Made by a program: the position numbers and the translations under genes. A DNA stretch of 64,000 nucleotides from a virus (Duplodnaviria > Heunggongvirae > Uroviricota > Caudoviricetes). The stretch lies in the IMG/VR virus record IMGVR_UViG_3300045911_000760. One strand, given 5' to 3'. Below are positions 8,529 through 58,835 of this stretch, one piece after another. Each line of letters starts with the position of its first letter. The first letter of the stretch is position 1. Under the pieces are notes generated by a model, which worked only from the letters and a program-made list of their open reading frames with translations, was not told where the DNA came from and made no database searches.

Positions 8529-8700
8529 TCACCCCTTGGTCGGCCCCCGACGCTTCATCCGCTCGAGCCTGAGCGGGCTCTTCAGGGACTCGGGCATCTC
8601 CGGCGGCAGGTCGTCCCGCTTGCCGTCGACGTAGTCGATCGCCGCCTGAATCAGCGGCCCGAAGAGCGTCACGATCTTGAGCACCTCGACGGCGGTCACG
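8529..8700 (-). CDS. small hypothetical protein (about 56 aa)
   Basis: Unlisted short ORF (VTAVEVLKIVTLFGPLIQAAIDYVDGKRDDLPPEMPESLKSPLRLERMKRRGPTKG). Its GTG start overlaps the stop of the upstream gene as GTGA. Coordinates +/-1. Confidence 0.2.
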
Positions 8701-9238
8701 AGTCACCTGCCCCTCCGAGGCCAAGCCACGCCTCGGCCATAGCGAGCGCTTGCAGCGCCTCAGCAGGGACGGTGATTGCTGGGTCCGCTGCGAGTTGCCG
8801 CACGATCCGCACCGCGTCGAGCAGGGCTGTCCGCACGTCCTCCACCTTCCCCACGACGAGGTGTCCATGCGCAGCCGAGAGCGCGGCGTGGGCGAGTTGG
8901 AGTCGCTGGCTCCGGACTTCGGCCGCACGGAGGTCCTTCGCCGAGTAGCCGACGTGCTCGAGTTCCGCCAATCGTTGGTCCTCGACGGTATCGATCGCCG
9001 CGAGGGCCAGGCGAGCCGCGTCGTACGCAACGCGTGCTGGGCTGCCGACGCTCGCCGCAGGCGCGGTCGCTGGCCCGGGCGGGGTACACCCGACGGGCAC
9101 CACGAGCAGCAGGGCAACGGCGGTCACCAGGAGACCCACCAGCGCCCGCACGTAGTAGGCGAACCGCGGCCAGAGCGTGACGCGCCACAGTGCGCGAGAG
9201 AGCCGGCGCTTGCGGCCGACGGGGGCGGCTTGCGTCAT
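8696..9238 (-). CDS. spanin-like / membrane-anchored periplasmic coiled-coil protein (i-spanin candidate)
   Basis: N-terminal TM anchor (ALVGLLVTAVALLLVVPVGC) followed by an alpha-helical domain. It lies in the lysis cassette upstream of the amidase endolysin. No separate lipoprotein o-spanin was identified. Confidence 0.4.
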   Translation of the reverse strand: MTQAAPVGRKRRLSRALWRVTLWPRFAYYVRALVGLLVTAVALLLVVPVGCTPPGPATAPAASVGSPARVAYDAARLALAAIDTVEDQRLAELEHVGYSAKDLRAAEVRSQRLQLAHAALSAAHGHLVVGKVEDVRTALLDAVRIVRQLAADPAITVPAEALQALAMAEAWLGLGGAGDS

Positions 9239-9694: not shown

Positions 9695-10075
9695 TCAGCG
9701 GACGCGTGGATTGGCGCCGTTCGGGTTGCCGTTTCCGGGCGCTCCGTCGGGCGGTCCGCCGCCGGGCGGGATCGTCGCCGGGCCTCGCTCGATGGCGGCA
9801 CGCGCTGCGGCGCGGGCCCGTGCCGTCCCGCGGGTCTCGAGGAGGTCTGCGTGCTCGCGCTCGAGCAGGTAGGTCCCGTCCGCCTCCGGCTCGCGGTAGG
9901 TCCGAGTGCCGCCTTCGACGCGCACGAACTCGCCGCCGGACCCCGGCTGGAGCCAGGCGTCATCGACCGGTGTGCCGTCGGGGCGCTCGCCGTGGAGGTG
10001 CGGGAGCCCGAGCGCCACGTCCACGGCAGCGCGGACGTACTCGGCATCCTCGGAGGTGACACGCCCGCGGCTCAC
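9695..10075 (-). CDS. hypothetical protein (possible fibre-assembly/accessory protein)
   Basis: GTG start overlapping the stop of the LamG-repeat fibre gene (GTGA). About 126 aa with a Gly/Pro/Asn-rich C-terminus. Confidence 0.3.
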   Translation of the reverse strand: MSRGRVTSEDAEYVRAAVDVALGLPHLHGERPDGTPVDDAWLQPGSGGEFVRVEGGTRTYREPEADGTYLLEREHADLLETRGTARARAAARAAIERGPATIPPGGGPPDGAPGNGNPNGANPRVR

Positions 10076-21108: not shown

Positions 21109-22431
21109 CTAGGCTGCCGTCGGGTAGTAGACGATCCTGCGACCCCGAGGGATCAAGAGGATCTCCGAGCCCGTCAGGTTGTTGCTGCTGATGAAGAAGT
21201 CCTCGCGGTCATCGACCGTGCCGTAGAGCTCCGCGCACAGGTCGATGACCGTGCGGGGCCGGTCGAGCACGATGGCGCGCTCCGGGACGAGGTTGAACGA
21301 CACCTGGACGAGGAAGCCCGCAGCGAGCGCCACGGCTTCCTGCAGCGCCTGGTAGGACTCGCCGGTGTCGACGATGTCGAGCTCCGCGAAGCGCTCCTGG
21401 CGCCAGGCCACGACCGCATCGAGCTGAGAGAGGATCTCCTCGGCAGCCGCCAATGCCTCGGGCTTCGTCGTGAACTCGTGGTTCAGGACGGCCCGGACGC
21501 TCCCAGCGACTGCCGCCTGGGCGCCAAGGTCAGCGAGACGGAAGTCGTTCTGCGCCTGGAGCCGCAGGTTCGCCGAGATCGCTCTGTCCGCGGAACTCGC
21601 ACGCGACGTCCCGAAGATGTCCTCGGCCATGGCGCGGTACCCCGCCAGGCGATCGAAGATCCCCGTCAGCGCCCGGGATGGCGCAGAAATCAAATTCACG
21701 ATCTGCCGAGCCAGGGACAGCGGCTGACCGACCAGCACGTCGAGACCGAAGTTCACCGTACTCTGCAGATCGCGAAACTCTCTGGTGATCGAGGACACGC
21801 CGCCCGAGACCCTGCTCAGGGCGCGGCTCACCGTCTGGAGGAGCCCCCGGACGGAGCTCTTCATGCCAGAGCGGCGGAGCCCGCTGCGGAGGTTCGCCCC
21901 GTTCGCGAACTGCTGCGCAGCCGCGATGTCGTAGGCCTCGGCCGCGGTGAGGATCTCGCTTCGCGGATTCCCTTCCGTCGAGGGGTAGACCGCGCCGGTG
22001 GTCGTCCAGAAGGTGACCTCGACGATGCTCTGGTTTGCGCCTTCGACGAGGTCATCGCGCTGCGTGATGGTGCCGAACGGAACGACGTTGAACGTCCCGT
22101 AGCGCGGGTGCTCGAGCTTCCCCTGGCCAGGCTCCAGCAGGCCAGCGAAGAAGGCGTCGGCGAGCTTGTCGCAGGAGCTCCCCGTGAAGTAGCAGAGCAG
22201 CGGGTACTTCCTCGACCCGTGGCCGTTGTCCTGGACGTAGTCGTCTCGGACCTTGATGAACGGGAAAGCGGTCGTTCGCTTGTCGACTTCGCGCCCGACG
22301 CCCTCGAACTTGAACGGGATCCGCGTGCCGCCCGGAGACGTGTATGCCCCCTCGCGGAGTCGGCTTTCCCAGCCCCCAGGACGATTGGCCCCGACGAGCG
22401 CTCCTGCGGCTGTAGTCGGCTGGAACGACAT
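21109..22431 (-). CDS. DNA circulation protein (Mu gpN-like)
   Basis: 440-aa ORF immediately downstream of the tape measure, in the conserved Mu-type tail order. N-terminal domain resembles DNA_circ_N. Confidence 0.55.
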   Translation of the reverse strand: MSFQPTTAAGALVGANRPGGWESRLREGAYTSPGGTRIPFKFEGVGREVDKRTTAFPFIKVRDDYVQDNGHGSRKYPLLCYFTGSSCDKLADAFFAGLLEPGQGKLEHPRYGTFNVVPFGTITQRDDLVEGANQSIVEVTFWTTTGAVYPSTEGNPRSEILTAAEAYDIAAAQQFANGANLRSGLRRSGMKSSVRGLLQTVSRALSRVSGGVSSITREFRDLQSTVNFGLDVLVGQPLSLARQIVNLISAPSRALTGIFDRLAGYRAMAEDIFGTSRASSADRAISANLRLQAQNDFRLADLGAQAAVAGSVRAVLNHEFTTKPEALAAAEEILSQLDAVVAWRQERFAELDIVDTGESYQALQEAVALAAGFLVQVSFNLVPERAIVLDRPRTVIDLCAELYGTVDDREDFFISSNNLTGSEILLIPRGRRIVYYPTAA

Positions 22432-24542
22432 CAGAAGCCTCCCGATGGGGCCGGACGCTGAAGCCTGATGCCAGAGCCCTTGGGCGCGTCGAGTTTGGCG
22501 CGTCCGGTGCGGTCATCGATCGTGAGCTCAGCCTTCGAGGTGTTGGTCGTCTCGGAGATCGTGCGAGCTGTCCGCTCCTGCGGGCTTACCATCTGCCCAC
22601 CCGCACTGGGCGCGGAGGCATCGTCGCCTCCACCCAACGCTGCGCGGCCCACCTCCCGCACCGCGTTGACGGCCCAGCTGATCTTGTCGACCACCTTGCC
22701 GAAGATGGACATGAACGCATCGGAGACCGCCGTCCAAAGCCCCGAGAAGAAGTCGAGGATGGGGGTCCAGATGCTGACCATCAGCTCGTAGTAGAACTTC
22801 ACCCGGCCAACGATGTACTCCCACATCCCAACGAAGGCGGCTCCGATGCCATCCCAGATCGCCAGGAAGAAGCCTTTGATCGGCTCCCAGTGCTCCATCA
22901 CCCAGCCGGCAGCCTGCTTCACCACTCCGAAGAGCAGCTTGAACATCTGGATCTGCGGCCAGAACAGGATCGAGAGGATGCCGACGACGAACTCGAACAT
23001 CCCCACCAGGAAGCTCTTTACTGGCTCCCAAATGGCCATGACGAAGCCGCTCACCGCCTCAGCGACCCGAGAGGCCATGTTCTTGATGCCCTCCCAAAGG
23101 TCGGAGAAGAACGCCGTGATCTCGGGCCAGAACGCGATGATGAGGCCGATCGCGGCCACGATCGCAATCCCGATGAGGACGTAGGGGTTGGCCGCAGCAA
23201 CGGCGTTGAAGATGGCTGCCGCAGTTGTCGCGATCTTGATCGCAGCCGCCACGGAACCGAAGACGGCCGCAACGATCGCGATCTTTTCGCCCCAGTAGAT
23301 GATGTCCGGGAGGATGTCTCGGACGTCCTGGATGAACTCCTTTACCCCGGAAACGATGAGGTCCTGGTTCGCGGTGACCCAGGCCGTGACGCCCTGAACC
23401 ACACCGCGAAGGGGGCCACTCTCCAGATCGAACAGCGCGATCTTCACGCCATCCACTGCTGACCCGAGCAGCGTCAGGTCGCCGTGCAGGTTGTTCATGC
23501 GGAGTTCAGCCATCTTTTCGGCTGATCCTTCCGCGCTCCGGAGCGCCTCGGTGAGTTGCTGACCCTTTTCGGAGGTGAAGAGGTCCTGGAGGTTGAGCGC
23601 CGCCTTCTGCCCGCGCAGGCCAACGAGGTCAGCGAAGAACGCGACCTTGTCCATGTTCCCGCCGAGCTTTCCAGCGGCCTTCTGCATGTTCGCGAAGACC
23701 TCCAGCGGCGGAAGCATGTTGCCCTTCGCGTCTTTGAACGCGACGCCGAGCTTCTTCATCGTCTTGGCGACGTCGTCCGACGGCTTGCTCAGTTTGGTGA
23801 GCATCGTCGCCGTGGCCGTTCCCGCCTCCGACGCGTCCAGGCCCACGTCCTGGAGCATGGCCACCATGCCGACGGCGTCCTCAAGCCCAATCCCGAACTG
23901 CTTCGCGACAGGGGAGAGGTTCTTCATCGACTCGCCGAGCGAGCCGATAGAGCTGTTCGTTCTCGAGCTCGCCAGCGTCAGTACGTCAGCGATCCGACCG
24001 GCCTCTGAGGCCTGAAGCCCCATGCCCTTCATCACGTTCGAGACATGATTGGCGACCTCCGCCATCTCCATCCCGGAGGCGGCGGCAGCGCTCAGCACGC
24101 CGCCCACGCCCGAGAGGATCTCCTGATTGGAGAAGCCGGCGCGGGCCATGATCTCCATGGCGTTCGCGGCCTCGGTCGCCGTGAACTTGGTCGTCGCGCC
24201 TAGCTTCTTGGCCTCGGCCTCCAGATCAGCGATCTGGTCGCGAGTCTGAAGTCCGACGGCGCCGACGGCGGTGATGGCCTGTTCGAAGTCGGCCCCTGCA
24301 GAGCCGATCTTGTAGAGGACGCCACCGAGCGCTGCGCCCACAACGAGCCCGACCTTGCCCGCTTCTGTCGCGAACGACTTGAGCCCCTTGTAGGCCTTGT
24401 TGATGACCTTGTCGGCATCCTTGAAGGTCGATTCGAGCTTCTTCCCCCAGCTCCCGACCCGGCTCTGCATCTTGGCGACGGGCGCACTGATCCTATCGAC
24501 GGCGCGGAAGATCGCCTCGATTGAGAACCGGCTGCTGGCCAA
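22431..24542 (-). CDS. tail tape measure protein (TP901-family core)
   Basis: 703 aa. Ala/Gly-rich helical N-terminal two-thirds with TMP-like repeats (GMVAMLQDVGLDASEAGTATATMLTKL). The hydrophobic C-terminal third carries W-rich repeats (FWPEITAFFSDLWEGIKNM...). TTG start 10 nt after the stop of the frameshift extension. Confidence 0.8.
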   Translation of the reverse strand: MASSRFSIEAIFRAVDRISAPVAKMQSRVGSWGKKLESTFKDADKVINKAYKGLKSFATEAGKVGLVVGAALGGVLYKIGSAGADFEQAITAVGAVGLQTRDQIADLEAEAKKLGATTKFTATEAANAMEIMARAGFSNQEILSGVGGVLSAAAASGMEMAEVANHVSNVMKGMGLQASEAGRIADVLTLASSRTNSSIGSLGESMKNLSPVAKQFGIGLEDAVGMVAMLQDVGLDASEAGTATATMLTKLSKPSDDVAKTMKKLGVAFKDAKGNMLPPLEVFANMQKAAGKLGGNMDKVAFFADLVGLRGQKAALNLQDLFTSEKGQQLTEALRSAEGSAEKMAELRMNNLHGDLTLLGSAVDGVKIALFDLESGPLRGVVQGVTAWVTANQDLIVSGVKEFIQDVRDILPDIIYWGEKIAIVAAVFGSVAAAIKIATTAAAIFNAVAAANPYVLIGIAIVAAIGLIIAFWPEITAFFSDLWEGIKNMASRVAEAVSGFVMAIWEPVKSFLVGMFEFVVGILSILFWPQIQMFKLLFGVVKQAAGWVMEHWEPIKGFFLAIWDGIGAAFVGMWEYIVGRVKFYYELMVSIWTPILDFFSGLWTAVSDAFMSIFGKVVDKISWAVNAVREVGRAALGGGDDASAPSAGGQMVSPQERTARTISETTNTSKAELTIDDRTGRAKLDAPKGSGIRLQRPAPSGGF

Positions 24543-24548
24543 GCGTGC

Positions 24549-24842
24549 CTACCCGCGCCGGGAGCGGCGCGAGAAACGCGGGATGCGCGGAGCCGAAGTG
24601 GCCGGCTTTTCAGCCGTCGCCTTCTTCAGCTCCTCGCGCAGCCCGTTGTAGAAGAATACGATTTCGTGGTCTTTGAGAGTCCGCGGATCCGGTAGCCCCG
24701 AGTAGTCGCGGCAAATCTGCTGCAGCATCTCACCGAAGACTCTTGGAGCGGTGTGTCTGCACGCCCCTGAGTTTCTGTCTGGCTCGAGCCGCGCGTCGTC
24801 GCCTTTCCGAACGATTCGGTCGACTACTGGGGCGAGAAAAAA
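24549..24842 (-). CDS. -1 programmed frameshift extension of the tail assembly chaperone (G-T type fusion product)
   Basis: The slippery heptamer T_TTT_TTC (plus-strand 24836-24842) sits in the zero frame 4 codons before the chaperone stop. The -1 frame is then open for 95 codons (LAPVVDRIVRKGDD...HEIVFFYNGLREELKKATAEKP...) and ends at TAG 24549-24551, just before the tape measure start. The other two frames are closed. Confidence 0.55.
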   Translation of the reverse strand, partial: FFLAPVVDRIVRKGDDARLEPDRNSGACRHTAPRVFGEMLQQICRDYSGLPDPRTLKDHEIVFFYNGLREELKKATAEKPATSAPRIPRFSRRSRRG

Positions 24843-25258
24843 AGCGACGCGAGTACCGAGAGGGCTTTCACGTCAGCAATTTCCTCGAGTGCGGTGAACT
24901 TCTTCGACGCCACACCTGACATGTCGGCGAGCGCTTCGAAGAGGTTCGCAATCTTTTGCTTCGGGTCGTGCGTTTCGAGCGCGAGGAACGTCGCCCCCCC
25001 GGCCTTCTTGAAGGTGAAGCTCTGACCGTCGAAGCAGCGGTACGTGACGAGGACTCCGTCCTCGTGGACCTCGAGTCGCCCTTCCCGGATGAGGCGAACG
25101 ATCTCTGCGCGCATCGCGCTGAAGTCCTTCTTCTCCTTCGGCGTCATCGAGTCGACGTCTGTGTCGACGCGCCGCCCACGACACAGCCGCTCGAACTCCT
25201 GAGCGGCGGTCTCTTCATCCACCTTGTACTGTTTGCTGGTCATTGTGCTGGTCTCCAA
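24824..25258 (-). CDS. tail assembly chaperone (G/E-like)
   Basis: 144-aa acidic protein located between the tail tube/cargo genes and the tape measure. It ends with a slippery run followed by an open -1 frame. Confidence 0.55.
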   Translation of the reverse strand: METSTMTSKQYKVDEETAAQEFERLCRGRRVDTDVDSMTPKEKKDFSAMRAEIVRLIREGRLEVHEDGVLVTYRCFDGQSFTFKKAGGATFLALETHDPKQKIANLFEALADMSGVASKKFTALEEIADVKALSVLASLFFSPQ

Positions 25259-25790
25259 ACGAAGCGGGGTCGCCCCCGCGGAAAAGCATCAGCATCCGCT
25301 TCCGGTGCTCTGGCCTCTTCACCAGGAGGCGACGCACGGGGGTCGCTCCCGCGGTCCACTCACGAATGCGTGAGACCCCGATCCCGGCGTGGGTCTTGTT
25401 CGTGCGGGTCCACCTGAAGGGGAACGAGATGAGGACGTGGCCGGATGGGCCTGCGACGCGCGCGGCCTCGAGGAACGCCGCCTCCTGTCGCCCCTCGAAG
25501 TGCTCCCAGCACTGCAGGGCGAGAACGAGGTCGTACGACGCTGAGGCTACGGGCCACGGGGTGGCGCCGGCGTCGTGGAGGTACGTGGGCGAGAAGTCCG
25601 CGGAGATGTCGAGGGTGTCGGAGCCGGGGACGAAGGGGTGCGGTCCGGGGCCGACCTCGAGGACCCGCGACGGGCTCAGCGTTGCCACCAGCCGCGCCAC
25701 GTGACGCAGGTAGACCCAGCGGCCGCGGAGGTACGGATGCACGTGCTCCGCGGCGCGGAAGTCCTCCTCCGAGATGGGTTCAAGCGGCAT
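25215..25790 (-). CDS. class I SAM-dependent methyltransferase
   Basis: Motif I VLEVGPGPHPF and post-I acidic residue. LVLALQCWEH resembles the motif II/III region. Start taken at the internal Met (MPLEPISEE). Overlaps the GT2 stop. Confidence 0.55.
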   Translation of the reverse strand: MPLEPISEEDFRAAEHVHPYLRGRWVYLRHVARLVATLSPSRVLEVGPGPHPFVPGSDTLDISADFSPTYLHDAGATPWPVASASYDLVLALQCWEHFEGRQEAAFLEAARVAGPSGHVLISFPFRWTRTNKTHAGIGVSRIREWTAGATPVRRLLVKRPEHRKRMLMLFRGGDPASFGDQHNDQQTVQGG

Positions 25791-26667
25791 GGGCGGAAAC
25801 CGCGGCGCGCACTCGCGCCACCTGCTCACGCCACCAGGGGGCCCCTGCGTGGGCCTCCTCCTGCATGCAGGCGAACATGGCGGTGTTCCGCGCCCGGAGC
25901 TCTTCGTCGAAGTGCAGCGGGTCCCGCTCGTGGGGCTGGTGGAGGAAGAGGACGCTGGTCAGCAGGTGCACCTCGACGAGCTGCTCGAGCACGTCGAGGA
26001 ACCGAAGCCGCCGGCAGAGGTCGATCTTGTTCGCTCCCCATCCGAGGTAGCGCTCATCGAACCCGCCCAGCGCCTCCCAGAGCCAGCGCGGCATCGAGGG
26101 AAACCCCTCGGGGAGCGTGAAGAGGTGCGTGGTCGCTGGAGCTCCGGGGCGGTAGCAGTGGTGTAGCCCGCTCGCCGTCTTCCGGTGCCGCGGGAGCGCC
26201 CACGGATCGCCCGCGTAGGAGGCCCATTCGGTGGGCGTCACGTCGGGCTCCGCGAAGCAGGGGGACACACAGACGGGCCGCTGACTCGCGCTGGCGACGG
26301 CCTTCAGGTGCTCCACGGCGCCGGGGTCGGCGAGCATGTCCGCGTCGAGCACCCAGAGGTGCTGTCCGACGGCTTCTCGGCACCCGGCGTTCCGGGCGTG
26401 GTTCCTGTGCGGGAGGTGCCCAGCGTGCGCCGTGCGCGGCGAGGGGACCACGGCAAGCCGCTTGCCCACCTGGGGCAGGTCGAGCGCGTCGATGCACGCC
26501 CAGGGGAAGTCGGCGGACGCTGCGTCGACCGCCACCACCACTTCGAAGTCCTGGTCGGTCTGGTGCTCGAGCGCCGCGACAGACCGGCGCAGGAGCGGCA
26601 ACCCCTCCTGGTGCACCGGGAAGACGAAGCTGACGAAAGGGTCAGCATTCATAGAGCTGCCAGCCAT
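25780..26667 (-). CDS. glycosyltransferase family 2 (GT-A fold)
   Basis: VSFVFPVHQEG...DFEVVVAVDAAS near the N-terminus, DXD motif WVLDADM. No TM segments, so it is soluble. Confidence 0.65.
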   Translation of the reverse strand: MAGSSMNADPFVSFVFPVHQEGLPLLRRSVAALEHQTDQDFEVVVAVDAASADFPWACIDALDLPQVGKRLAVVPSPRTAHAGHLPHRNHARNAGCREAVGQHLWVLDADMLADPGAVEHLKAVASASQRPVCVSPCFAEPDVTPTEWASYAGDPWALPRHRKTASGLHHCYRPGAPATTHLFTLPEGFPSMPRWLWEALGGFDERYLGWGANKIDLCRRLRFLDVLEQLVEVHLLTSVLFLHQPHERDPLHFDEELRARNTAMFACMQEEAHAGAPWWREQVARVRAAVSAHAA

Positions 26668-27352
26668 GGGTCGCGGCGTGCTGTCGGATCAACCGATTCC
26701 GGCGCTCGTGCCCTTCAGCTTGCGAGGACCGGAAGATCCCCGCTGGGTCGAGGGAGGCCAGAGACTTCAGCCAGTGGGCTTCGTGCGGAATCAGCCAGAT
26801 CGGCACCTGGTTCAGCTGGGCCCAGACCGACAGCTGCATGTCAGCGAGGTTCCGCTCCGGGAAGCTCGTCGGAACCGCGAGCTTCGAAGCGTCCCAGGCC
26901 ATCACCCCGGTTCCGCCGTGGTTCACCCAGCGCCCGTTGCCAACGCGCTTGTGGATGATCCCGACGCTCCCCGGCACCACGTCGAAGACGTTCCGCGCCT
27001 GCGGGCGGTACGTCCGACCGTGCGCTGTGACGATGGCGCGACCGTCCCAACGCAGAACGGCGTCCACCATCGTGGCGACGTAGCCTTCGGCATAGACGAA
27101 GTCGTCGTCGCACGTCAGGTAGACGCCGGCGTGGGCTTGGGCCCAGTGGAACTTGCGCTCCGCTCCATGGTTTTCGGGTGAGAGGACGTACTTGTCGGCC
27201 AGGTCCTGCACGCAACAGGGGACCGCCTCGTACCCATTGAGGTACACGTGGAGGCGGTCCACCTGCGGGCGCAGAGATTCGAGCGCCTGGACGAGCAGGT
27301 GCTCGCGCTCCGGGACCGACGCGAGCGAGGCGAGGGTGAGCGGGCGTGTCAC
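26642..27352 (-). CDS. putative glycosyltransferase (GT-A-like, DDD motif)
   Basis: 236 aa with YLTCDDDFVY acidic motif and N-terminal LVQALESLRPQVDRLHVYLNG. The GTG start overlaps the tail tube stop as GTGA, so it is translationally coupled to the tube gene. Confidence 0.45.
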   Translation of the reverse strand: MTRPLTLASLASVPEREHLLVQALESLRPQVDRLHVYLNGYEAVPCCVQDLADKYVLSPENHGAERKFHWAQAHAGVYLTCDDDFVYAEGYVATMVDAVLRWDGRAIVTAHGRTYRPQARNVFDVVPGSVGIIHKRVGNGRWVNHGGTGVMAWDASKLAVPTSFPERNLADMQLSVWAQLNQVPIWLIPHEAHWLKSLASLDPAGIFRSSQAEGHERRNRLIRQHAATHGWQLYEC

Positions 27353-27732
27353 TGCTGCTGCAGCTTGCCGCCGCCGCTCATCTCGATCGTCGCGGTGGTG
27401 TTCTGGGAGTTGTAGACGACCTCACCCGTGATCGTGCCTACGGCCTCGTAGGTCACGCCGCTCGCGTAGGTCACCGAGATGTCGACGGGGTCATTCGAAT
27501 CGGCGATCCCTTGCAGGAACTCCTGGTCGCCGCGCACGTCTTTGACCTCGACCACCAGGCCGCCAAGCATCCACGGCACGCGAGTCTTCACGTAGCGAAC
27601 GGAGCCGTCCCCGTTCGGTTGGGCTTCCTTCTCCCATCCGCCGAGCTTCCGCGTGGTGTCCGCGTCGGACGCCACGACGAACCGTCGTCCCCGGATGGAG
27701 ATCTCTTGAATCGAACCGCCTGTTGCGCTCAT
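27349..27732 (-). CDS. tail tube protein (contractile tail, Mu gpM / P2 FII-like)
   Basis: About 127 aa from the internal Met (MSATGGSIQEISIRG). It directly follows the sheath gene. Size and beta-rich composition are typical of tube proteins. Confidence 0.55.
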   Translation of the reverse strand: MSATGGSIQEISIRGRRFVVASDADTTRKLGGWEKEAQPNGDGSVRYVKTRVPWMLGGLVVEVKDVRGDQEFLQGIADSNDPVDISVTYASGVTYEAVGTITGEVVYNSQNTTATIEMSGGGKLQQQ

Positions 27733-27833: not shown

Positions 27834-29342
27834 TCAGGCGGCTGGCGCCGATCCGAAGTCGAAGCCCCACTCGAGAGTGATCGCCTTCTGGTTCACGTTC
27901 CCGGACAGCTGAACAGGGATGCGAAGGTTCAGCCGCTTCGGTCCGCCGATCCACGCCTGGGTGTTGGCCTTGGCCTGCTCGCGATTGGTGAGGATCGCAG
28001 CGTTGGCGAGGTTCTCGATGATCTGAGAGGCGCGCGACTTCGCATTCTTCGGCTTCTTCGCCGTGGGCTCGGTCACCGGCTCGTCATCGCCGACCAGGGG
28101 AGCGCCGTCCCATTCCGGTCGTTTGAACTCCAGCGCGATGTTGAACAGGATGTTCTGCAGCTTCACGATGTCGACCACGTGCCGGTAGGGAGGGGGCTCC
28201 TCGCCCTCCGGCCGGTAGCAGGTCACCACGTCGCTGATCCGAAGGACGTCGTCGTCCCCCTTCTCGACGGTGGAACTTCCGGACTTCACCGCGAAGTCGC
28301 GCTGGGCGTAGTCCCACTGCTCCGCGTCGGTGCCGGGGATGATGCGGTCCAGCAGCTGGCTGCCGTAGTCGTGCGCGGGGATGTTGTTTGCCAGGCGTGC
28401 GATGCGCGCCACGGCCCGAGCCGCAACGACGGCGGGAAGGTTGGGCGAGCCGGGCGCCGGCATCTGGACATTGACGGCGTCGCCTCGGCGCGCGGAGGTC
28501 TCCGTGGTGGCTGCCGCCACGTTGGCCTTCGTGTTCCCGGTGAACACGACCAGGGGCTTCTGCACGAGCGGATCCCAGCGACCCGACCCGGGCGTCGTTT
28601 CCGTGCCCGGCGTCCCGCCGAACTCCTGGTAGGCGTCGAGCGCGTCCGTGTCCTCGATGTTGAGGCCGTTGATGCCCATCGTGACCCACTGGCTACCGAT
28701 CTGCTCGAGCGCCTCGGTGACGTCGGGGTTGATCAGGCCGCCGGATGGCTGGGTGATGCCGAACGTCATGCCGCTCAACTCTCCGAGGAGCTCGACCACG
28801 ACATCGTTCCCGCTTTCGCCGGACCACTTCACCTGAAGCGTGACGCTGGTCGGGCCCGCCGTCGCAGTGACCGGCATGCGCAGTGTGCCGTTGATCGCGT
28901 TGGCGATCTTCGTGCAAATGTTCGCGATGGACTCACCCTGGAGGATGACGAACGGCGCCGAGAGCCGTCCGGCGGCGCGCACTCTGTAGCGCTTGCTCTC
29001 CGTCTGGCTGCCCGTGGGCGTGATCGCTCCGGTTGCGGCGACCCCTTCGTACCCGGGCTGGAGCGGGAACACCGTGACCCGCACGGTGCCCACACCATCG
29101 CCGCTCAGGGGCAGGAGTTCGTCGACGATCAGGTCCGCCAGGGAGCCCCATCCGAGGCGCCTCCCGACTTCTGCGGACCCACCGGTCACGACGAACTTCT
29201 CGGAGCTGTACACGGCCGAGTCGGACCCGGGCGCGAACACCGCGATGTGCTGCGGCAGGTTCAGGGCAGACCCTTGCCGCATGTCCTTGTACTGGGTCTT
29301 GATGCCGGTCACTCGGGCGACGGCTGTTGCATCGACGGGCAT
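27834..29342 (-). CDS. tail sheath protein (contractile tail)
   Basis: About 500 aa from the internal Met (MPVDATAVARVTGIKTQYKD). Sheath-like N-terminus and size. It is followed by the tube gene, in Myoviridae-type order. Confidence 0.65.
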   Translation of the reverse strand: MPVDATAVARVTGIKTQYKDMRQGSALNLPQHIAVFAPGSDSAVYSSEKFVVTGGSAEVGRRLGWGSLADLIVDELLPLSGDGVGTVRVTVFPLQPGYEGVAATGAITPTGSQTESKRYRVRAAGRLSAPFVILQGESIANICTKIANAINGTLRMPVTATAGPTSVTLQVKWSGESGNDVVVELLGELSGMTFGITQPSGGLINPDVTEALEQIGSQWVTMGINGLNIEDTDALDAYQEFGGTPGTETTPGSGRWDPLVQKPLVVFTGNTKANVAAATTETSARRGDAVNVQMPAPGSPNLPAVVAARAVARIARLANNIPAHDYGSQLLDRIIPGTDAEQWDYAQRDFAVKSGSSTVEKGDDDVLRISDVVTCYRPEGEEPPPYRHVVDIVKLQNILFNIALEFKRPEWDGAPLVGDDEPVTEPTAKKPKNAKSRASQIIENLANAAILTNREQAKANTQAWIGGPKRLNLRIPVQLSGNVNQKAITLEWGFDFGSAPAA

Positions 29343-29430: not shown

Positions 29431-30126
29431 CTACGGAGCCGGCGTCGCCGGGAACTCGGCGAGCAAGAACTCGCCGTTCAGGCGATTGATGCGCACAGAA
29501 ACGCCTTCGAGCGTCTCCGGGACCGTCTCGAGCGACTCCTCGTTGAAGTCGACGTGAAAGGCGATCCTTCCAGCGTGCACGTTCTGCAGATTCCGGTTGT
29601 CGATCTGCGGCTGGAACATCGTGATCGTCTCTGCGTGACGACCCCAGACGAACTGGTTCTCGCGCCGAGGCGTGCCGAGGTACATGTACGTCCCGGCCAT
29701 CAGGATCCCGCGCACGAGCTCCGCGGTTTCATCCGCGATGCGAGCTGCAACGAGGTCGCCGGGCTCGTGGCCGTCCTCCGTCTCGCTGCTGACGCCGCAC
29801 GCGTAGCAATCGATCTGGTAGACGCCGGTGACTTTGTCGCGGGAGATCGGGTTGCTCGCCGCCTTCGTCGTGCTCCGGTTGTCGAACCAGACGTTCACGA
29901 TGGGGCGCAGGTCCCCTTCGTCCTGGGCCCCAGGAAGCCTGAACTCGTCCCAGGGATTCGTCCGCTCACGGAAGACCCGGATGTCGTAGGGGGAGGGGTC
30001 GTCGCTCTCCTCGACCGCGAGGACCCGCTGGTTCTTGGACTCGACCAGCAGGATCTTGGCGAGCAGGTCACCGATGATCCACCGGCGACTACGCACATCG
30101 ATCCTCTGCGTGATGCGCGCCGTCAC
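29431..30126 (-). CDS. hypothetical virion protein (neck / tail-completion candidate)
   Basis: 231-aa ORF between the head-completion genes and the sheath; function not recognised. Confidence 0.35.
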   Translation of the reverse strand: MTARITQRIDVRSRRWIIGDLLAKILLVESKNQRVLAVEESDDPSPYDIRVFRERTNPWDEFRLPGAQDEGDLRPIVNVWFDNRSTTKAASNPISRDKVTGVYQIDCYACGVSSETEDGHEPGDLVAARIADETAELVRGILMAGTYMYLGTPRRENQFVWGRHAETITMFQPQIDNRNLQNVHAGRIAFHVDFNEESLETVPETLEGVSVRINRLNGEFLLAEFPATPAP

Positions 30127-30513: not shown

Positions 30514-30981
30514 TCAGTCCTTCACCAAGAAGCCCTTCTCGAAGAGCTCCCGCATGGTGTTCTCGCCGTCACCGAACTCTCTCGGGCTGACCACGGTCCC
30601 GGCCGGGCGAACGCCCTTGAACGTGACCAGGTCCTTCCCAGGAGCAACCTTGAAGACGCCCGCCTTCGAGGTTGGGGGAGCCGGTGGCGCATCCGGCGGC
30701 TGGCTCGAACCCTCGGGCGGGCCATCCGGAGAGGCCTCTCCCGGCGTTCCAGGAGCTGGGTCGTCCGTTGGCACTGAGGGGACCTGGGGAGCACGCGGCT
30801 CCGACGGGACCGCTTCAGGTTCCACGCGACGAGCCCCACCGTGCATCCCGACGGCTTTGACGCGCAGCTGCGCGAGCAGGTCGGACAGCTTCGCGTTGTT
30901 GAGCCCGTCGGTCGATACGTCCTCCCCAAGCTGAGCGCTCAGGGAGGCGATCTCGTCTCGCAACTCGCGGTTGGTGGCCAT
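30514..30981 (-). CDS. hypothetical protein downstream of the major capsid gene
   Basis: Internal Met start (MATNRELRDEIASLSAQLG) overlaps the capsid gene stop. Pro-rich linker and a conserved-looking C-terminus (FKVAPGKDLVTFKGVRPAGT). Confidence 0.35.
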   Translation of the reverse strand: MATNRELRDEIASLSAQLGEDVSTDGLNNAKLSDLLAQLRVKAVGMHGGARRVEPEAVPSEPRAPQVPSVPTDDPAPGTPGEASPDGPPEGSSQPPDAPPAPPTSKAGVFKVAPGKDLVTFKGVRPAGTVVSPREFGDGENTMRELFEKGFLVKD

Positions 30982-32057
30982 CAGGAGTTGACGGTCAGAC
31001 GCCCGAAGGTGTCGATGCCGGTGGGGATGGTGAGGGGACGGGCAGCTGCGCCCACCACGAGCCGCTTGCCGTCCGGCGAGATGTAGGCGTTCGTGGTGAG
31101 GTCCAGGCTCGTCTTGGGGTCGGAGATCCTTCCGGGGAGGAAGCGCGCAGCGAGGTTCTCCGGCCTGCGGAACAGAGGGACTCCGCCGAAGGTGAGGTCG
31201 AGCCGGCCATTGCTGGACAGCATCAACACCTCGTTGTGGGCCACGTAGGGCGTGTCCTGCTTCGTCACCGGGTGGGTGTAGGACTCGCTGTAGCTCCACA
31301 TTTCGAACTGGTAGTGGCCCACGAAGACCCAGCCCTGGAACGTGGCACCCTGACCGCGCGGTTCCGGAGCGACCCGGCCGAGGCCCATCGAGCGGTTGTC
31401 GAGCCTGGACTTGACTTCCTCGTCGGAGAGCCAGAGGTCCAAGGCCTCCTCGCCGAAGATCAGCTTGGCGGGGGAACTCTTCCCGTCGCGACGGATCACT
31501 TCTGCGAGGCCCGCAACGTCACGCATTGGCTGGGCGCCTGTGGTTCCCCAGGGGGTGCCCACGGTGACGAAGTGGCTGGACTTGGGCTGGAAGTTCAGCG
31601 CGTAGTTCGTGCCGTCATTGCCGGCCAGTTCGAGTTCCCCACTACGGAGAACTTGGCTCGCCATGACCTCGGTGGTGCGCCGGATCATGGCGTCGAGCTT
31701 GCGAAAGACGGAGAACGCGTCGTCCATCGCCTTGTCGACGAACTCGAAGTCCTGGAAGGGATCCTGCCCGGCCAGGCGATCGAACTGGTTCCAAGCCAGG
31801 ACCAGTCCTTCCTCGTCGAGGATGGGCGGCGTGAACTCCTTGCTCGTGAACTTGTTGCTCTCGTTCTGGTTGGGACCCAGCGAGAGGTCCTTGACCACGA
31901 CGGCGATGTCTCGACCGTCACGCTGGACGTCGAGCTTCACCTTCTCGCTGTTGTGGTAGTTCCTGGGCGGGCTCTGGAAGTGCCCCGCCAGGAACATCGG
32001 CGCCGGTGCCTCTTCCTGGTACCGGGCGATCATGCGCAAAGTAGTTGCGTCGGGCAT
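30981..32057 (-). CDS. major capsid protein, lambda gpE family
   Basis: 358 aa positioned after the protease/scaffold and decoration genes. Sequence resembles Phage_cap_E proteins. Confidence 0.75.
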   Translation of the reverse strand: MPDATTLRMIARYQEEAPAPMFLAGHFQSPPRNYHNSEKVKLDVQRDGRDIAVVVKDLSLGPNQNESNKFTSKEFTPPILDEEGLVLAWNQFDRLAGQDPFQDFEFVDKAMDDAFSVFRKLDAMIRRTTEVMASQVLRSGELELAGNDGTNYALNFQPKSSHFVTVGTPWGTTGAQPMRDVAGLAEVIRRDGKSSPAKLIFGEEALDLWLSDEEVKSRLDNRSMGLGRVAPEPRGQGATFQGWVFVGHYQFEMWSYSESYTHPVTKQDTPYVAHNEVLMLSSNGRLDLTFGGVPLFRRPENLAARFLPGRISDPKTSLDLTTNAYISPDGKRLVVGAAARPLTIPTGIDTFGRLTVNS

Positions 32058-32223: not shown

Positions 32224-32646
32224 TCAGGAGTCCAGGTCGTCAGGTTGCGGGTTGTCGACCTGTGCGAGTTGACGGACGCTCTTGGTCCGGATGCTGACCG
32301 CTCGGAGGAGGTCCAGAACGACAGCGTCGACGTTCTCGTTGTCGCCATCGGCGTGGATCACGAGCCGGCTCTCGTTCACGATTCCCGCGGTGAGAACCTG
32401 AGCTGGAACATTGCCCGCCCCAGTCGCCTCGAGCTCGTAGGTCAGGATCGCCTTGGGTACACCATTCCCATTCGAGCTTCCGCCCTTGACGTAGGGAATG
32501 AAGAGACCGGTCCCGGTGTGGCGAGCCAGAATCGTTCCCTCGAGAAGCTTGTCTGCTCCAGCGAAGGCGATCTCGTTCTGCTCGCGGGACTCGGTCTCGA
32601 TGACGACGGACCCGCGGTCGTTGTTGTAGATGTCGATGTTAGACAC
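32224..32646 (-). CDS. head decoration protein (lambda gpD-like)
   Basis: 140-aa protein between the protease/scaffold and major capsid genes, which is the lambda order C-Nu3-D-E. Composition is gpD-like. Confidence 0.5.
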   Translation of the reverse strand: MSNIDIYNNDRGSVVIETESREQNEIAFAGADKLLEGTILARHTGTGLFIPYVKGGSSNGNGVPKAILTYELEATGAGNVPAQVLTAGIVNESRLVIHADGDNENVDAVVLDLLRAVSIRTKSVRQLAQVDNPQPDDLDS

Positions 32647-53369: not shown

Positions 53370-53635
53370 CGCCCCGTGACCTTCCCCTCAGCCACGCAGC
53401 TCGCAGCGAACAGCAGCTGCAGCGCAGCGTGGTGCAGCTTGAGCTCCCCGCTCGCCTCGTCGCGGCCCTCGTACATCGGGCCAGCGGCGCACATCGCCGT
53501 GTCCGCCTCGTGGAAGTGGAAGTCGGCGTCGAGGTGCCGCACTTCGACGACACCCTGAGAGACGATCCGCTCGAGCGCGTCGAGTTGGGCACCGAGCCCG
53601 ATGGCGTGGAGGTTGGGGTACTTGTCGTCCTTCAT
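53366..53635 (-). CDS. small hypothetical protein (89 aa)
   Basis: Internal ATG start has an ATGA overlap with the Dam-like gene stop. The upstream part of the listed ORF is Arg-rich. Confidence 0.3.
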   Translation of the reverse strand: MKDDKYPNLHAIGLGAQLDALERIVSQGVVEVRHLDADFHFHEADTAMCAAGPMYEGRDEASGELKLHHAALQLLFAASCVAEGKVTGR

Positions 53636-54819
53636 GAAGCCTCTCCGAACAGAGAAACCTGCCGGTTCTGCTCGAGCGGCAGGCAGTGGGGGCTGAACCA
53701 GATCCGCTCCTTTGAGCGGTTGTCGTTGCCCTCGGCGGCGTACCCGCGGGGCGCCTTCCAGGCGTACTCGCGCCACGTTGGTGGCATCTCGTGCTCACCC
53801 TCGTAGCCGCAGAGCGCGATCCGTAGGTCCGGGTCATCCCCGTGATCGAGCGCCCACTCGCGGACCCTGGAGGAGATCGCCGCCTCGTCCTCGGTGTAGA
53901 GGTACCGGCAGCGGAGGTCCAAGTCGTATGGCGGGTCGAGGAACACCGCGCATGGGCGGCGCCCCCCTACATTCTTGCCCTTGCCCAATACGCTGGGACC
54001 GAGCACCCGCGTCCAATCCCCGCAGGCAACACGAACCCGACGGAGACGCTCCTGCAGCCGGAGAAACCACTCCTCGCAAGGCGCGGCCGCAACCCCGTTC
54101 AGTCCGCGGTCGTTGCCCAGAGCAGTTAGGTGGACCCCCTGGCCCGCCTGTGAAAGAGCAGGGCGACGTCCAGGCGAGTAGGCGGCGCGCAAGGCCTCGT
54201 CCGAGTGGACTCCTCGGCCCGGGTTGTCCCCGGACATCACGGGGCGCTTCTGGTGGGTTCCGGAGTGGACTCCTCGCCCTGAGTGCATCCCGTTCCGCGT
54301 GGTGACGGCGAGGTCCGGGAGCTGGCGCTTCGGCTCGTAGCCCGCCTGGGAGTGCACACCCTTCCCGATTCCGTCCAGCTTGGGATGTTTCCTGTTCCGT
54401 GGCTCAGCGCACCAGCCGCCGCCGATCCACTGGCAGATGCCCCACACCCACCAGCCCGCAACCTTGGCGTCGTAGTAGTCCGGGTCGATGTGCATGCGCT
54501 CCCTGAACTCGTGCTGATTCACGAGCCAGAGGTGACGCGCGTGCATGTCCGCTTCGTTCACCGGGTAGTCGCACCACTCGGCCACCGCCCACGGGTCGTG
54601 CGTGATCGCACGCCAGAAGTTGGCGACGTAGCGGTCGATGTCGTTGACGGTCTCGATCTTCCCGGGGCCGCCCGGGCGAGCCAGGAGCACGGCGCCACTA
54701 CCAAAGAACGGTTCAACATAGTTGTTGATCGACGGTCCGAAGGCTTTCCAGACAACGTCTGCAACCCGCCTCTTCCCGCCGAACCAAGGAAAGGGCGCTC
54801 GTAGCGACTGCTCCGTCAC
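53632..54819 (-). CDS. DNA adenine methyltransferase, D12 (Dam-like) class, with an internal tandem-repeat insertion
   Basis: N-terminal FPWFGGKRR...EPFFGSGAV and catalytic FLDPPY. A central insertion carries 4x G(K/R/Q)GVHS repeats encoded by direct DNA repeats. Confidence 0.7.
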   Translation of the reverse strand: MTEQSLRAPFPWFGGKRRVADVVWKAFGPSINNYVEPFFGSGAVLLARPGGPGKIETVNDIDRYVANFWRAITHDPWAVAEWCDYPVNEADMHARHLWLVNQHEFRERMHIDPDYYDAKVAGWWVWGICQWIGGGWCAEPRNRKHPKLDGIGKGVHSQAGYEPKRQLPDLAVTTRNGMHSGRGVHSGTHQKRPVMSGDNPGRGVHSDEALRAAYSPGRRPALSQAGQGVHLTALGNDRGLNGVAAAPCEEWFLRLQERLRRVRVACGDWTRVLGPSVLGKGKNVGGRRPCAVFLDPPYDLDLRCRYLYTEDEAAISSRVREWALDHGDDPDLRIALCGYEGEHEMPPTWREYAWKAPRGYAAEGNDNRSKERIWFSPHCLPLEQNRQVSLFGEAS

Positions 54820-55669: not shown

Positions 55670-56596
55670 TCATGCAACCTCCGCGAGCCGCTCGATGAGC
55701 TTCCGAGCCGGCGGCGGGCACACCGCGTTCCCGAGCCCGACGATCTGCTCGCGTCGCTTCGAGGTAGCTGGCCAGGCGTAGGACTCCGGGAACCCCATGG
55801 CCCTGGCGGTCTCCCGCACCGTCAGCGGCCGGTACCGGTCGCCATCGACAACGACCCACTGGTCCTTCGTGGTGATCGTCCGGATCGGCTCGTGGAGGGG
55901 CACGCCGGGGTGCCCGGTGACGTGCTGGGAGAGGCACCGGGTGCCGTGGTTCCGGACGGCGCGCACCATGCGCTCTTGGGCGTCGGCACTCGCCACCGAC
56001 CGGGGGCGCCAATCGCCGTCTTCCCAGTCGATGCAGGGGCCGAAGGGGCGCTCCACGGCCCGCTCCGTTGCGAGGTCGTGGAACTCGTAGAAGGCGCGGG
56101 CCATGCGCTTGCGTGTCGCGGCGATGAACAGCCGGGTGCGGCGCTGCGGGGCGCCATGGCGGCTCGCCGTCACCAGGAGCTCGGCCAGGTGGTACCCAAG
56201 GGCATAAAGCGCCGCACGCCACTGCGGGTAGAGCCGCCAGCGCGTGAAGCGTGGAACGTTTTCGACCAGGATCCCGCGGGGCTCGGTCGCGTCCGCGCAG
56301 TCGACGACTGCCCAGGCCGTGGCGCGCATGGCGTCGTGGATGGGTCGCCGGTTGGGCTGGGAAGCTGAGGAGTGCCCTTGGCAGGCCGGAGACGCCAGGA
56401 GCAGGTCGTAGGGCGGGAGCGCTGTCCAGTCGGCCTGACGCAAGTCCTGGCAGACGTGCTCGGTGCGCGGGTGGTTCAGCGCATGCGCCTCTACGGCGAG
56501 CGGCCAGTGGTTTGCGGCCCATGCCACTTCGACGCCGGCTTGCTCGGCCGCGCAGGTGAAACCACCCCAACCGCTGAAGAGGTCGACCGCTCTCAC
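55670..56596 (-). CDS. DNA cytosine-5 methyltransferase
   Basis: Motif I DLFSGWGGF, motif IV ASPACQGHS (PCQ), ENVPRF, motif VIII QRRTRLFIAA, motif X GNAVCPP. Confidence 0.85.
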   Translation of the reverse strand: MRAVDLFSGWGGFTCAAEQAGVEVAWAANHWPLAVEAHALNHPRTEHVCQDLRQADWTALPPYDLLLASPACQGHSSASQPNRRPIHDAMRATAWAVVDCADATEPRGILVENVPRFTRWRLYPQWRAALYALGYHLAELLVTASRHGAPQRRTRLFIAATRKRMARAFYEFHDLATERAVERPFGPCIDWEDGDWRPRSVASADAQERMVRAVRNHGTRCLSQHVTGHPGVPLHEPIRTITTKDQWVVVDGDRYRPLTVRETARAMGFPESYAWPATSKRREQIVGLGNAVCPPPARKLIERLAEVA

Positions 56597-57569: not shown

Positions 57570-58835
57570 CTACACAACAAGGCAATTCGAACGTGTGAGG
57601 CGCACGAGCACGGTCTCCACCATCGTCCCAGCATGGGCAAAGCTCCCCTTGGGATTCTTGGTGATCGTTCCGTCGTGCTGCTCGACGAGCGCGCGGAACT
57701 CGCGACCCATCTTGTCGTCTCGGTAGAGCACTCCCGCGCTCGCGATCGCAGCGAGCCGCCCGCCTGGGCGGAGGAAGCGCAGGGCGTGGGTGATGTGGAG
57801 GATGTCCTGGCGCTTCGAGAACGGCGGGTTCATGGCCACGCCATCGAACGGTGGCAGGAGATCGTGGGGAGCCTGGAGGAAGTCCCACTGCTGCCAGAGC
57901 TTGAACCCAGCGTCGAACAGGGCGTCGCGGTTCTCCCGGAACGCCTCCACGCAGGTCACGTCCACGTCCGGGCACACGCGGAGCAGCGCCCGCACGAGCG
58001 CTCCTTTCCCGGCGGACGGCTCCAGGAAGCGCTCGCCCGGCTTCGGGTCGAGCCACCTGGCAAGCTCGTCGGCGAGCTCCGAGCCCGTCTCGAAGAACTC
58101 CGCGGCACGCGCGTCGAGGATCTCCCCCGTCTCGAGCGCGAGCCTCACGAGCTCTTGGGCGTCCGCGTCGTCGGGGAAGGCGAACCCGCCCGGGCGCTTC
58201 TTCGTCTTGCGCTGCCAGGAGCCCCCGAGGGCCTGCATGATGGCCTTCAGGAGAGCCCAGTCCTCGATGAACTCCTCCGGGACGTAGACGGCGAAGTTGC
58301 TCTCGACGCGCAGGTTCCGCAGGAGTTCGCGCTCGCGGTCGGAGAGGCGGCGCTTGCCGATGTCCTCGGGAGACTCGACCTTTGCCTTCGTCACGCGGGC
58401 GCTCGCAGCCTTCGGCCGCCCCTGGCGGAGCTCTTCCTTGCGAGCAGCCTCTTCGGCGCGTTGCGCGGCCAGCTTCTCGTCGAGCTCGTCCAACGTGCAC
58501 CCCAGGAGCTTCGCGTGCATGGTCCGAAGTTTCAGGAGGTCCCGATCTGCGCCGAGGTTCATCTCCTCCAGCGCGTCGAACAGCCAGTCGCCCAGATCCC
58601 CATCGCGCACAGGGAGTACCAGGCAGCGCTCCGCATCCGTGCCGGGGTAGGCGGCGCAGAAGAGTTCCTCTGCCGCCCCTGCGTCCGCAGCCGGTACCGG
58701 TAGCGGGCCCGGGGTGTCGAGCTTCCCGGGCGCGGCGTAGTAGACCTGCCGGACACCAGGGACTTCGGCGCGCGGAGCGTAGACCTGCGGGTCTGCAGCG
58801 GGGCCACCACCGAAGAGGTCGAGCTGGTCACCCAC
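57570..58835 (-). CDS. N6-adenine DNA methyltransferase with an about 200-aa N-terminal extension
   Basis: C-terminal motif I FLEPSAGKGALV and motif IV VAMNPPF. N-terminal domain of unknown function. Confidence 0.7.
   Translation of the reverse strand: MGDQLDLFGGGPAADPQVYAPRAEVPGVRQVYYAAPGKLDTPGPLPVPAADAGAAEELFCAAYPGTDAERCLVLPVRDGDLGDWLFDALEEMNLGADRDLLKLRTMHAKLLGCTLDELDEKLAAQRAEEAARKEELRQGRPKAASARVTKAKVESPEDIGKRRLSDRERELLRNLRVESNFAVYVPEEFIEDWALLKAIMQALGGSWQRKTKKRPGGFAFPDDADAQELVRLALETGEILDARAAEFFETGSELADELARWLDPKPGERFLEPSAGKGALVRALLRVCPDVDVTCVEAFRENRDALFDAGFKLWQQWDFLQAPHDLLPPFDGVAMNPPFSKRQDILHITHALRFLRPGGRLAAIASAGVLYRDDKMGREFRALVEQHDGTITKNPKGSFAHAGTMVETVLVRLTRSNCLVV

Follow-up and report, generated by a model that had tools for sequence, protein, structure and literature searches.

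To our knowledge, the only phages for which virion glycosylation by their own enzymes has been demonstrated are a small number of actinobacteriophages, and in these it alters antibody recognition. Mycobacteriophage Corndog (cluster O) encodes an O-methyltransferase (gp35) and glycosyltransferases (GTs; gp36-38) between portal and protease (PMC4351075), and the summary of Freeman 2023 given in PMC12619734 locates mycobacteriophage glycans on the C-terminal ends of the subunits of capsid and tail tube. Here we analyse a 64,000-nucleotide (nt) stretch of Caudoviricetes DNA (IMG/VR record IMGVR_UViG_3300045911_000760; hereafter the window), in which three minus-strand genes form a cassette within the tail operon of a contractile-tailed phage. 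They encode a GT-A glycosyltransferase of the GT45 (KfiA/PmHS2 GlcNAc-T) type (GT1; 26642..27352, 236 amino acids (aa)), a family-2 GT-A glycosyltransferase (GT2; 25780..26652, 290 aa; PF00535) and a class I S-adenosylmethionine (SAM)-dependent methyltransferase (MTase; 25215..25790, 191 aa). Among related phages GT1 is associated, both statistically and phylogenetically, with C-terminal [Asp/Glu]-Ser tails on virion proteins. The three-gene cassette probably carries out late cytoplasmic O-glycosylation of such C-terminal serine tags, a reading that we hold with moderate confidence.

The cassette resembles those of mycobacteriophages Che8 (cluster F), Corndog and Myrna (cluster C) in that soluble GTs and an O-methyltransferase, putative here, are encoded in the virion structural operon, and in that the glycosylation enzymes do not form part of the virion. 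A further likeness concerns the ends of virion subunits, the C-termini being the reported site of the glycans there (in the summary cited above) and the site of the predicted tag here. In one of the phage types described below (L102), the cassette also occupies the same portal|protease slot as in Corndog. The likeness does not extend to sequence: tblastn of GT1 and GT2 against 50,697 GenBank phage records gave no match at E ≤ 1e-3 and no relationship to the Che8, Corndog or Myrna GTs, and in a BFVD search a Gordonia phage GT turned up only as a generic GT-A match. The phage in the window is a contractile, Mu-like myovirus of a probable myxobacterium, a Gram-negative host, whereas the comparison there is with an actinobacterial siphovirus. 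As acceptors we predict here a decoration protein of the lambda-gpD type and a neck protein with a terminal [Asp/Glu]-Ser tag, as opposed to capsid and tail tube; glycosylation, experimental in the mycobacteriophages, is a prediction in the present system.

Cassette variants and C-terminal tails among related phages

About 25 genomic contexts of GT1 homologues with at least 49% identity were examined (L numbers label the relative loci; L020 is Logan SRR18680875 contig, L011 is GCA_040384045.1 and L114 is GCA_046128375.1), and all of them fall inside a phage structural module. Three slots are used in the phage family of the window, namely tube|chaperone, capsid|connector (L007 and L008) and tape measure|baseplate hub (L010, L013 and L115). 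Cassette content takes four forms: GT1 alone (L103, L105, L106 and L114); GT1-GT2-methyltransferase (the window and L022); GT1-GT2-kinase (L020); and large cassettes (4-6 kb), which encode a fusion of methyltransferase and TOD1/MUCI70-like GT, a Glyco_trans_1_2 protein and a number of additional methyltransferases and have only GT1 in common with the cassette of the window. L020 is the closest sister phage (GT1 87% identical) and encodes, in place of the methyltransferase, a 378-aa kinase-like protein (9570-10706) that matches the APH fold, phrog_3297 'kinase' and, weakly, RfaP and Kdo-kinase. A nucleotide-sugar dehydrogenase gene (8706-9989; TIGR03026, E = 4e-117) lies between tube and GT1 in L011, its product being closest to UDP-ManNAc and UDP-GlcNAc-6 dehydrogenases, and at that position L104 has one gene more, of ~1 kb. 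GT1 is the sole gene constant across cassette variants and, in all those examined, stands ahead of any other GT gene; it is preceded only by the L011 dehydrogenase gene and the L104 gene. The cassette is absent from L002, L003, L024, L025/L026 and ~20 metagenome relatives. A preliminary description of the window had proposed comparing the tube-chaperone junction among relatives, and the comparison finds many that lack the cassette there and others that carry it elsewhere. Patchy presence and variable position (three slots, four content variants) are the pattern of a moron, and on these comparative grounds the cassette is a mobile module, moron-like in its evolution, and not a fixed tail component.

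The predicted acceptor is the head decoration protein (HDPD/lambda gpD type; 32224..32646, minus; phrog_49, with PF02924 matched in homologues). In the window it ends '...DNPQPDDLDS' (codons 32256..32227), an extension not found in cassette-less relatives. The usual end across the broad phage family (GC 37-68%) is '...LDNQ', which GenBank isolates have as well; their decoration proteins align only as far as residue 132. All 12 multi-gene-cassette lineages with a readable decoration-protein C-terminus carry an extension of the form 'DNPQPxxx[D/E/G]S', whereas in ~20 GT1-less lineages with enough coverage the decoration protein lacks the PQPxxx[DEG]S extension. Tails also occur on other proteins. 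The product of g231, the gene directly before the sheath gene (29431..30126, minus; phrog_4671, function unknown), ends 'PATPAP' in the window, but has a [DE]DS end in the majority of relatives whose cassette comprises several genes; g127 ends in this way occasionally; the major capsid protein (30981..32057, minus; phrog_29, with PF03864 matched in homologues) ends '...LTVNS' in the window and 'LTVA' in most other relatives, and has an extra tail, 'YPDGDS', in L022. The carriers of [DE]-Ser tails are drawn from several protein families (decoration protein, g231, g127, L022 capsid protein, phrog_563 head protein and PF23961 neck terminator). Over all predicted proteins of GT1-bearing loci, C-terminal 'DS' was found in 21 of 266 (expected, 1.0), with 0-4 occurrences at control positions 1-39 residues upstream, and in the GT1-less high-GC relatives it was found in none of 72 proteins. 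L025/L026 lack both the cassette and the tails, yet all four gene trees, for capsid, tube, g231 and hub, place them inside the clade that bears the cassette. The tube and sheath C-termini of the window resemble those of cassette-less relatives, and the Ser/Thr-rich C-terminal tails at first expected on tube or sheath were not seen in the C-terminus comparison.

The association recurs in an unrelated myovirus lineage (MuF protein, DUF2213, PF09950 capsid and DUF3383 sheath; one member is a Kofleriaceae metagenome-assembled genome (MAG)), in which a GT1-like gene has 29% identity and the same invariant residues. The neck terminator (PF23961), encoded just before the sheath, ends 'WVPDPPPDS' (L092) or 'WIPDPPPPES' (L111) in members with the GT1-like gene; in GT-less members it ends 'WIPNPPPP' (L120) or has no [DE]S end (L121, L122 and L124). 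The L120 protein has the proline tail of its GT-bearing relatives minus the final two residues. Similarly, the phrog_563 head protein ends 'AADS', 'ATADS' or 'AVADS' with the GT1-like gene and 'ATNDV' in GT-less L120. We found no homology between g231 and the second-lineage neck terminator with hhalign and treat them as analogous, so that proteins without common ancestry would have come to carry the tag. A third phage type, L102, encodes a GT1 with 60% identity and another GT between portal and protease, and its pre-sheath protein ends 'DINPPES'; it was not accepted as a third tail replicate because its relatives are too distant (26-45% sheath identity) and offer one pre-sheath homologue only.

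Four further observations concern these loci. The GT1-only L114 encodes, between its decoration and capsid genes, a second protein of 339 aa (1093-2112) that ends '...SQLAQLDNQ' like its decoration protein, of which it may be a duplicate or an extended form. In L025, a cassette-less high-GC relative, the sheath gene (1143-2915) has ~590 codons compared with ~500 elsewhere, which suggests an inserted domain. The C-terminal region of the L102 portal protein (2036-4369) matches RNA ligase PHROGs (phrog_14859, E = 4e-18). An open reading frame (ORF) of the window at 8696..9238 (minus, 180 aa, ending '...GLGGAGDS') was rejected as an acceptor, having no family match and an ambiguous coding signal; a plus-strand ORF overlaps it, and if it is a real gene it would encode a second Asp-Ser-ending protein in this phage.

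The cassette enzymes and their operon

GT1 gave zero matches in Pfam, PHROG and NCBIfam scans, and its homologues (162 clusters) are all unnamed and without a Pfam domain. Its identity as a glycosyltransferase follows from an invariant motif, a predicted structure and a profile match to solved structures. The DDD motif (D82-D83-D84, residues 82-84) is invariant in 32 homologues and in distant homologues. Foldseek of the AF2 model (pLDDT 93.8) returned 8viw (E = 5e-19, TM 0.81), with matches to the PmHS2 GlcNAc-transferase domain and KfiA, and 143 PDB matches at E ≤ 1e-3, GT-A enzymes throughout among the matches listed. The GT1 family profile, run against PDB sequences, recovered PmHS2 residues 304-528 (E = 1.6e-32) and KfiA (E = 2.4e-22). 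GT1 therefore combines the Rossmann-like fold and DxD-type motif of GT-A enzymes with homology to KfiA and the PmHS C-terminal domain, which belong to CAZy family GT45. By this structural and profile evidence it is a genuine GT45-type enzyme, a true homologue of KfiA and PmHS2, and most likely a retaining alpha-HexNAc transferase.

KfiA (Escherichia coli K5) and PmHS2 (Pasteurella), the characterised GT45 enzymes, transfer GlcNAc from UDP-GlcNAc with retention onto a sugar (GlcA), not onto protein, and extend a GlcA-terminated capsule polysaccharide. GT1 shares their fold, profile homology and DxD-type motif at 22-25% identity, but is a stand-alone phage protein whose sole conserved partner is a peptide tail; these comparative data point to the peptide tail over GlcA as its acceptor. 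Two distant GT1-like loci, L015 (Paracoccaceae) and L093 (a low-GC phage), have non-structural contexts and are uninformative. In the bacterial loci L014 and L018 the GT1-like domain is part of multidomain GT/FkbM fusions, and no phage genes were seen there. The L018 protein (7796-10696; Pyrinomonadaceae MAG; 966 aa) joins it to GT2 and FkbM-methyltransferase domains, and the L014 protein (9236-11458; Kribbella; 740 aa) to an FkbM-methyltransferase domain. Because the two are fused in these large bacterial proteins, the link between GT1-type enzymes and methyltransferases predates the phage cassettes.

GT2 scores 44.4 bits against PF00535 (Glycos_transf_2; gathering cut-off 23.3), with a weak Glyco_transf_7C match besides. 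Its homologues number 56, and its DxD motif (D103/D105) is invariant in 23 homologues. The AF2 model (pLDDT 89.6) matches ppGalNAc-T2 (E = 5e-12), K4CP (E = 5e-11) and, about equally, LARGE1 (E ~1e-11) in Foldseek, and the top NCBIfam match is the exopolysaccharide GT EpsD, with a score far under its cut-off. GT2 has the Glycos_transf_2 plus Glyco_transf_7C signature and a fold that matches both the polypeptide GalNAc transferases (GT27) and K4CP (E ~1e-11), but identity is only 15-18%, TM is ~0.6 and the lectin domain is missing. As modelled, GT2 is a GT-A enzyme with a fold that would fit a protein or a glycan acceptor alike. The MTase passes two Pfam cut-offs narrowly (Methyltransf_23, 27.6 against 27.0; Methyltransf_11, 25.2 against 21.2) and has a conserved glycine-rich motif I, 'VLEVGPGP', in which E45, G47 and G49 are nearly invariant; score and motif are those of a class I SAM-dependent methyltransferase. 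Its family is tiny (12 homologue clusters, on GT1/GT2-bearing contigs), and its profile gives weak matches in the PDB, with only generic small-molecule class I families matched. The preliminary description had named the three genes as a GT-A-like GT, a GT2 and a SAM methyltransferase and had called for profile searches. GT2 and the MTase passed their Pfam cut-offs in these searches, whereas GT1 matched no Pfam or PHROG family and proved GT45-like by structure and profile.

Gene order on the minus strand, from PHROG and Pfam matches and ORF positions, is sheath - tube - GT1 - GT2 - MTase - frameshifted chaperone - tape measure. The sheath gene (27834..29342, minus; phrog_165, E = 6e-74) encodes 502 aa according to public gene calls, the longest ORF starting at 29378, and is followed by the tube gene (27349..27732, minus; phrog_4699, E = 3e-37). 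Downstream of the cassette lie the genes for a tail assembly chaperone of 139 aa (24824..25243, minus; phrog_4648, E = 6e-14; its homologue in relative L006 matches PF10109) and for the tape measure (22431..24542, minus; PF10145, E = 9e-49; phrog_28, E = 2e-91). Read directly from the sequence, GTGA at 27352..27349 is common to the TGA stop of the tube gene and the start of GT1; GT1 overlaps GT2 by 11 nt (GT2 ATG at 26652), GT2 overlaps the MTase gene by 11 nt (ATG at 25790), and the MTase gene overlaps the chaperone gene by 29 nt (ATG at 25243). Gene boundaries are identical in the gene calls of public contigs with the same phage, the 4-nt tube/GT1 overlap (GTGA or ATGA) is kept in five relatives, and the tight overlaps of the cassette are kept across relatives. 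The chaperone frameshift is plausible because a T7 slippery run (24843..24837) is combined with a -1 frame that is open, from 24872 to 24549, up to the tape measure start; the resulting extension (24549..24843, minus) stops just before that start and is conserved among relatives (42-83% identity). Third-position GC of the GT1, GT2 and MTase ORFs is 0.85-0.89, and none of the three proteins has a transmembrane (TM) helix (maximum 19-residue Kyte-Doolittle value, 1.45). A scan of 22-33 kb found no sigma-70-like promoter, by an E. coli-type consensus that may not suit myxobacteria, and terminator-like sites at chance rate.

These readings bear out what the preliminary description had said of the gene order, the GTG start of the first GT within the tube stop, the overlaps of about 11 nt, the lack of TM helices and the tight translational packing in a late operon (4-, 11-, 11- and 29-nt overlaps, conserved in relatives), and they make the chaperone frameshift plausible. 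It had also presented the cassette as co-expressed with structural genes and not an independently regulated moron. Translational embedding agrees with the first part of that statement, but the evolutionary behaviour of the cassette, with its patchy presence, three slots and content swaps, is moron-like.

Proposed reaction and competing explanations

In the proposed mechanism the cassette would be translated from the structural mRNA along with tube and chaperone, and GT1 would recognise a short, exposed C-terminal tag ending [Asp/Glu]-Ser, here '...PQPDDLDS' of the decoration protein. The first sugar would be placed on the terminal serine of the tag, probably by GT1, after which GT2 would lengthen the glycan chain and the MTase would cap it by O-methylation of the terminal sugar. 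The kinase that replaces the MTase in L020 is compatible with such a capping role. As kinase, GTs, methyltransferases and the nucleoside diphosphate (NDP)-HexNAc dehydrogenase vary among relatives, the glycan would diversify around a constant GT1/tag pair. Two known systems offer partial parallels. WbdD of E. coli O8/O9a terminates O-antigen chains as a methyltransferase or as a kinase plus methyltransferase, leaving methyl or phosphate caps; the last enzyme of the cassette likewise alternates between methyltransferase (window and L022) and kinase-like protein (L020), a likeness that would be one of role only. In Pseudomonas aeruginosa 1244 pilin the C-terminal serine is O-glycosylated by TfpO/PilO, a periplasmic, membrane-bound oligosaccharyltransferase that uses a lipid-linked O-unit; a last-residue serine is also the predicted site here, whereas the enzymes would be soluble nucleotide-sugar GT-A proteins. 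The tails as acceptors, serine as the linked atom, the initiating GT and the identities of the sugars are predictions throughout, and the benefit may lie in shielding, stability or adhesion.

Several points weigh against this reading. Glycosylation is deduced here from genes and their comparison, and serine as the acceptor of GT1 would be a new acceptor type for GT45. GT2 rather than GT1 could be the initiating enzyme, since GT2 resembles polypeptide GalNAc transferases and polysaccharide polymerases alike. In the window the tag is on the decoration protein only, and not on g231. Decoration proteins of the GT1-only phages (n = 4) end 'DNPQS', 'DNQS', 'DNPQA' and canonical 'LDNQ'; the GT1s of these phages form a separate subclade and may have another acceptor. 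The multi-gene-cassette lineages of the window's family are clustered in a single part of the phage tree. The contrast of 12 with ~20 lineages therefore overstates the number of independent events, which are few (about two in the main family, plus the second lineage). The promoter scan, finally, is a weak test, given its E. coli-type consensus.

A fuller version of the same idea, which we put forward tentatively, is that GT1 belongs to a phage-specific branch of GT45 that switched from polysaccharide to protein acceptors and reads a Pro-rich spacer followed by [Asp/Glu]-Ser-COOH. Unrelated virion proteins of myxobacterial myoviruses would have gained the tag by convergence, in two lineages or more, and extension and capping enzymes would be swapped so as to diversify a glycan coat on capsid and neck. 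The system would then be a portable, genetically encoded protein-glycosylation tag and the first case of virion glycosylation in phages of Gram-negative bacteria.

Instead of virion proteins, the soluble GTs might use as substrates the lipid-linked intermediates from which the host builds exopolysaccharide or O-antigen in its cytoplasm. A branch of alpha-HexNAc and a methyl cap would then alter the cell surface, in lysogens or in the course of infection, so as to exclude superinfecting phages or mask receptors. Much about the cassette suits such a moron: it is variable and mobile and is carried by a prophage (on contigs of 528-706 kb), the GT45 relatives of GT1 use sugar acceptors in capsule synthesis, the best NCBIfam match of GT2 is EpsD (though far below the cut-off), the distant bacterial GT1-like domains fused to GT2/FkbM domains look like polysaccharide enzymes, and the GT1-only phages lack [DE]-Ser tails. 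We nevertheless regard a host-envelope role as unlikely. Gtr-type (GtrABV) prophage modules share with the cassette prophage-borne GTs and variable presence, but Pfam and hydropathy analysis found no GtrA-like flippase, GtrB-like bactoprenol GT, TM GT or other TM component, and no polymerase; the cassette shares overlaps with late structural genes, and neither a promoter (by the E. coli-type consensus) nor a terminator specific to it was detected; and close GT1 homologues are found only within phage structural modules. Above all, [DE]-Ser tails that track the GT in two unrelated phage lineages would go unexplained. This tail co-variation favours a virion-protein target over host polysaccharide, as the preliminary description had supposed, but the protein concerned would be the decoration protein (with the pre-sheath protein in relatives) and not, as it had suggested among other candidates, tube, sheath or fibre.

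The same tails go unexplained if GT1 and GT2 alternate as the polymerase of a heparosan-like polymer, free or lipid-primed, that is terminated by the MTase or kinase and is released at lysis or coats the virion non-covalently. GT1 is homologous to heparosan synthase and KfiA, GT2 is structurally like the chondroitin polymerase K4CP, and the dehydrogenase gene beside GT1 in L011 (only the ~1 kb gene stands at that place in L104) recalls KfiD, the NDP-sugar dehydrogenase counterpart in the E. coli K5 cluster. We still think such a polymer quite improbable, since genes for primer synthesis and export are absent, GT1-only cassettes would be unable to make a disaccharide repeat, and the large cassettes, with GT1 as the only shared gene and many methyltransferases, are ill suited to a simple repeating glycosaminoglycan. 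Glycosylation and methylation of phage DNA against restriction deserves hardly any credence. GTs in phages often hypermodify DNA (PMC12619734), and the window has three DNA methyltransferase genes at 53.6-58.8 kb. The cassette, however, lies in the structural module and outside the replication module, a non-exhaustive scan of window proteins revealed no gene of the hydroxymethylase type, GT1 and GT2 are like polysaccharide or protein GT-A enzymes and unlike known DNA glucosyltransferases, the MTase matches generic small-molecule class I families only, and tail co-variation is again left unexplained.

That a decoration protein resembling lambda gpD bears a [DE]-Ser tag at its end for glycosylation is a concrete, bench-testable prediction. 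If it is true, virion glycosylation extends to contractile-tailed phages of a Gram-negative phylum, the unnamed family of 162 GT1 clusters without a Pfam domain gains a function, and swaps of the capping enzyme become a compact natural case of glycan diversification under selection. The short C-terminal tag, read by a small soluble GT, would also be attractive for the engineering of glycosylated phage-display or vaccine scaffolds.

Host and other genes of the window

The window consists almost wholly of phage genes on one strand, among them genes for a lambda-gpA-type terminase, portal, S49 protease, gpD-type decoration protein, Phage_cap_E capsid and Mu-like baseplate. Two metagenome contigs, 528 kb and 706 kb long, contain identical copies of GT2 and the MTase, so the element is a prophage. 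Among genome records, close relatives occur in MAGs of Polyangiales and Polyangiaceae, the other relatives being metagenomic, and the host is probably a myxobacterium; together with the Mu-like baseplate, this fits the high-GC Gram-negative host and Mu/P2-type tail of the preliminary description. In GenBank phages, searched at the DNA and protein levels, the structural genes matched only distant relatives without the cassette (Vibrio, Shewanella and Aeromonas), and a myxophage survey preprint touches on GTs only in passing.

Three DNA methyltransferase genes lie in the early region: a D12-class N6-adenine methyltransferase (53632..54819, minus), a C5-cytosine methyltransferase (55670..56596, minus) and an N6_Mtase/MTS-like methyltransferase (57570..58835, minus). 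With these, the phage appears to protect its own DNA by methylation. The non-structural region also encodes an SPFH/Band-7 protein (46453-47319, minus) and an SNF2-family helicase (49673-51457, minus). A 1313-aa protein (2366-6307, minus) combines a Big_5 Ig-like domain with a 'Gp77 fibre-tail adaptor' domain (PF23148) at its C-terminus and is probably a tail fibre or receptor-binding protein.

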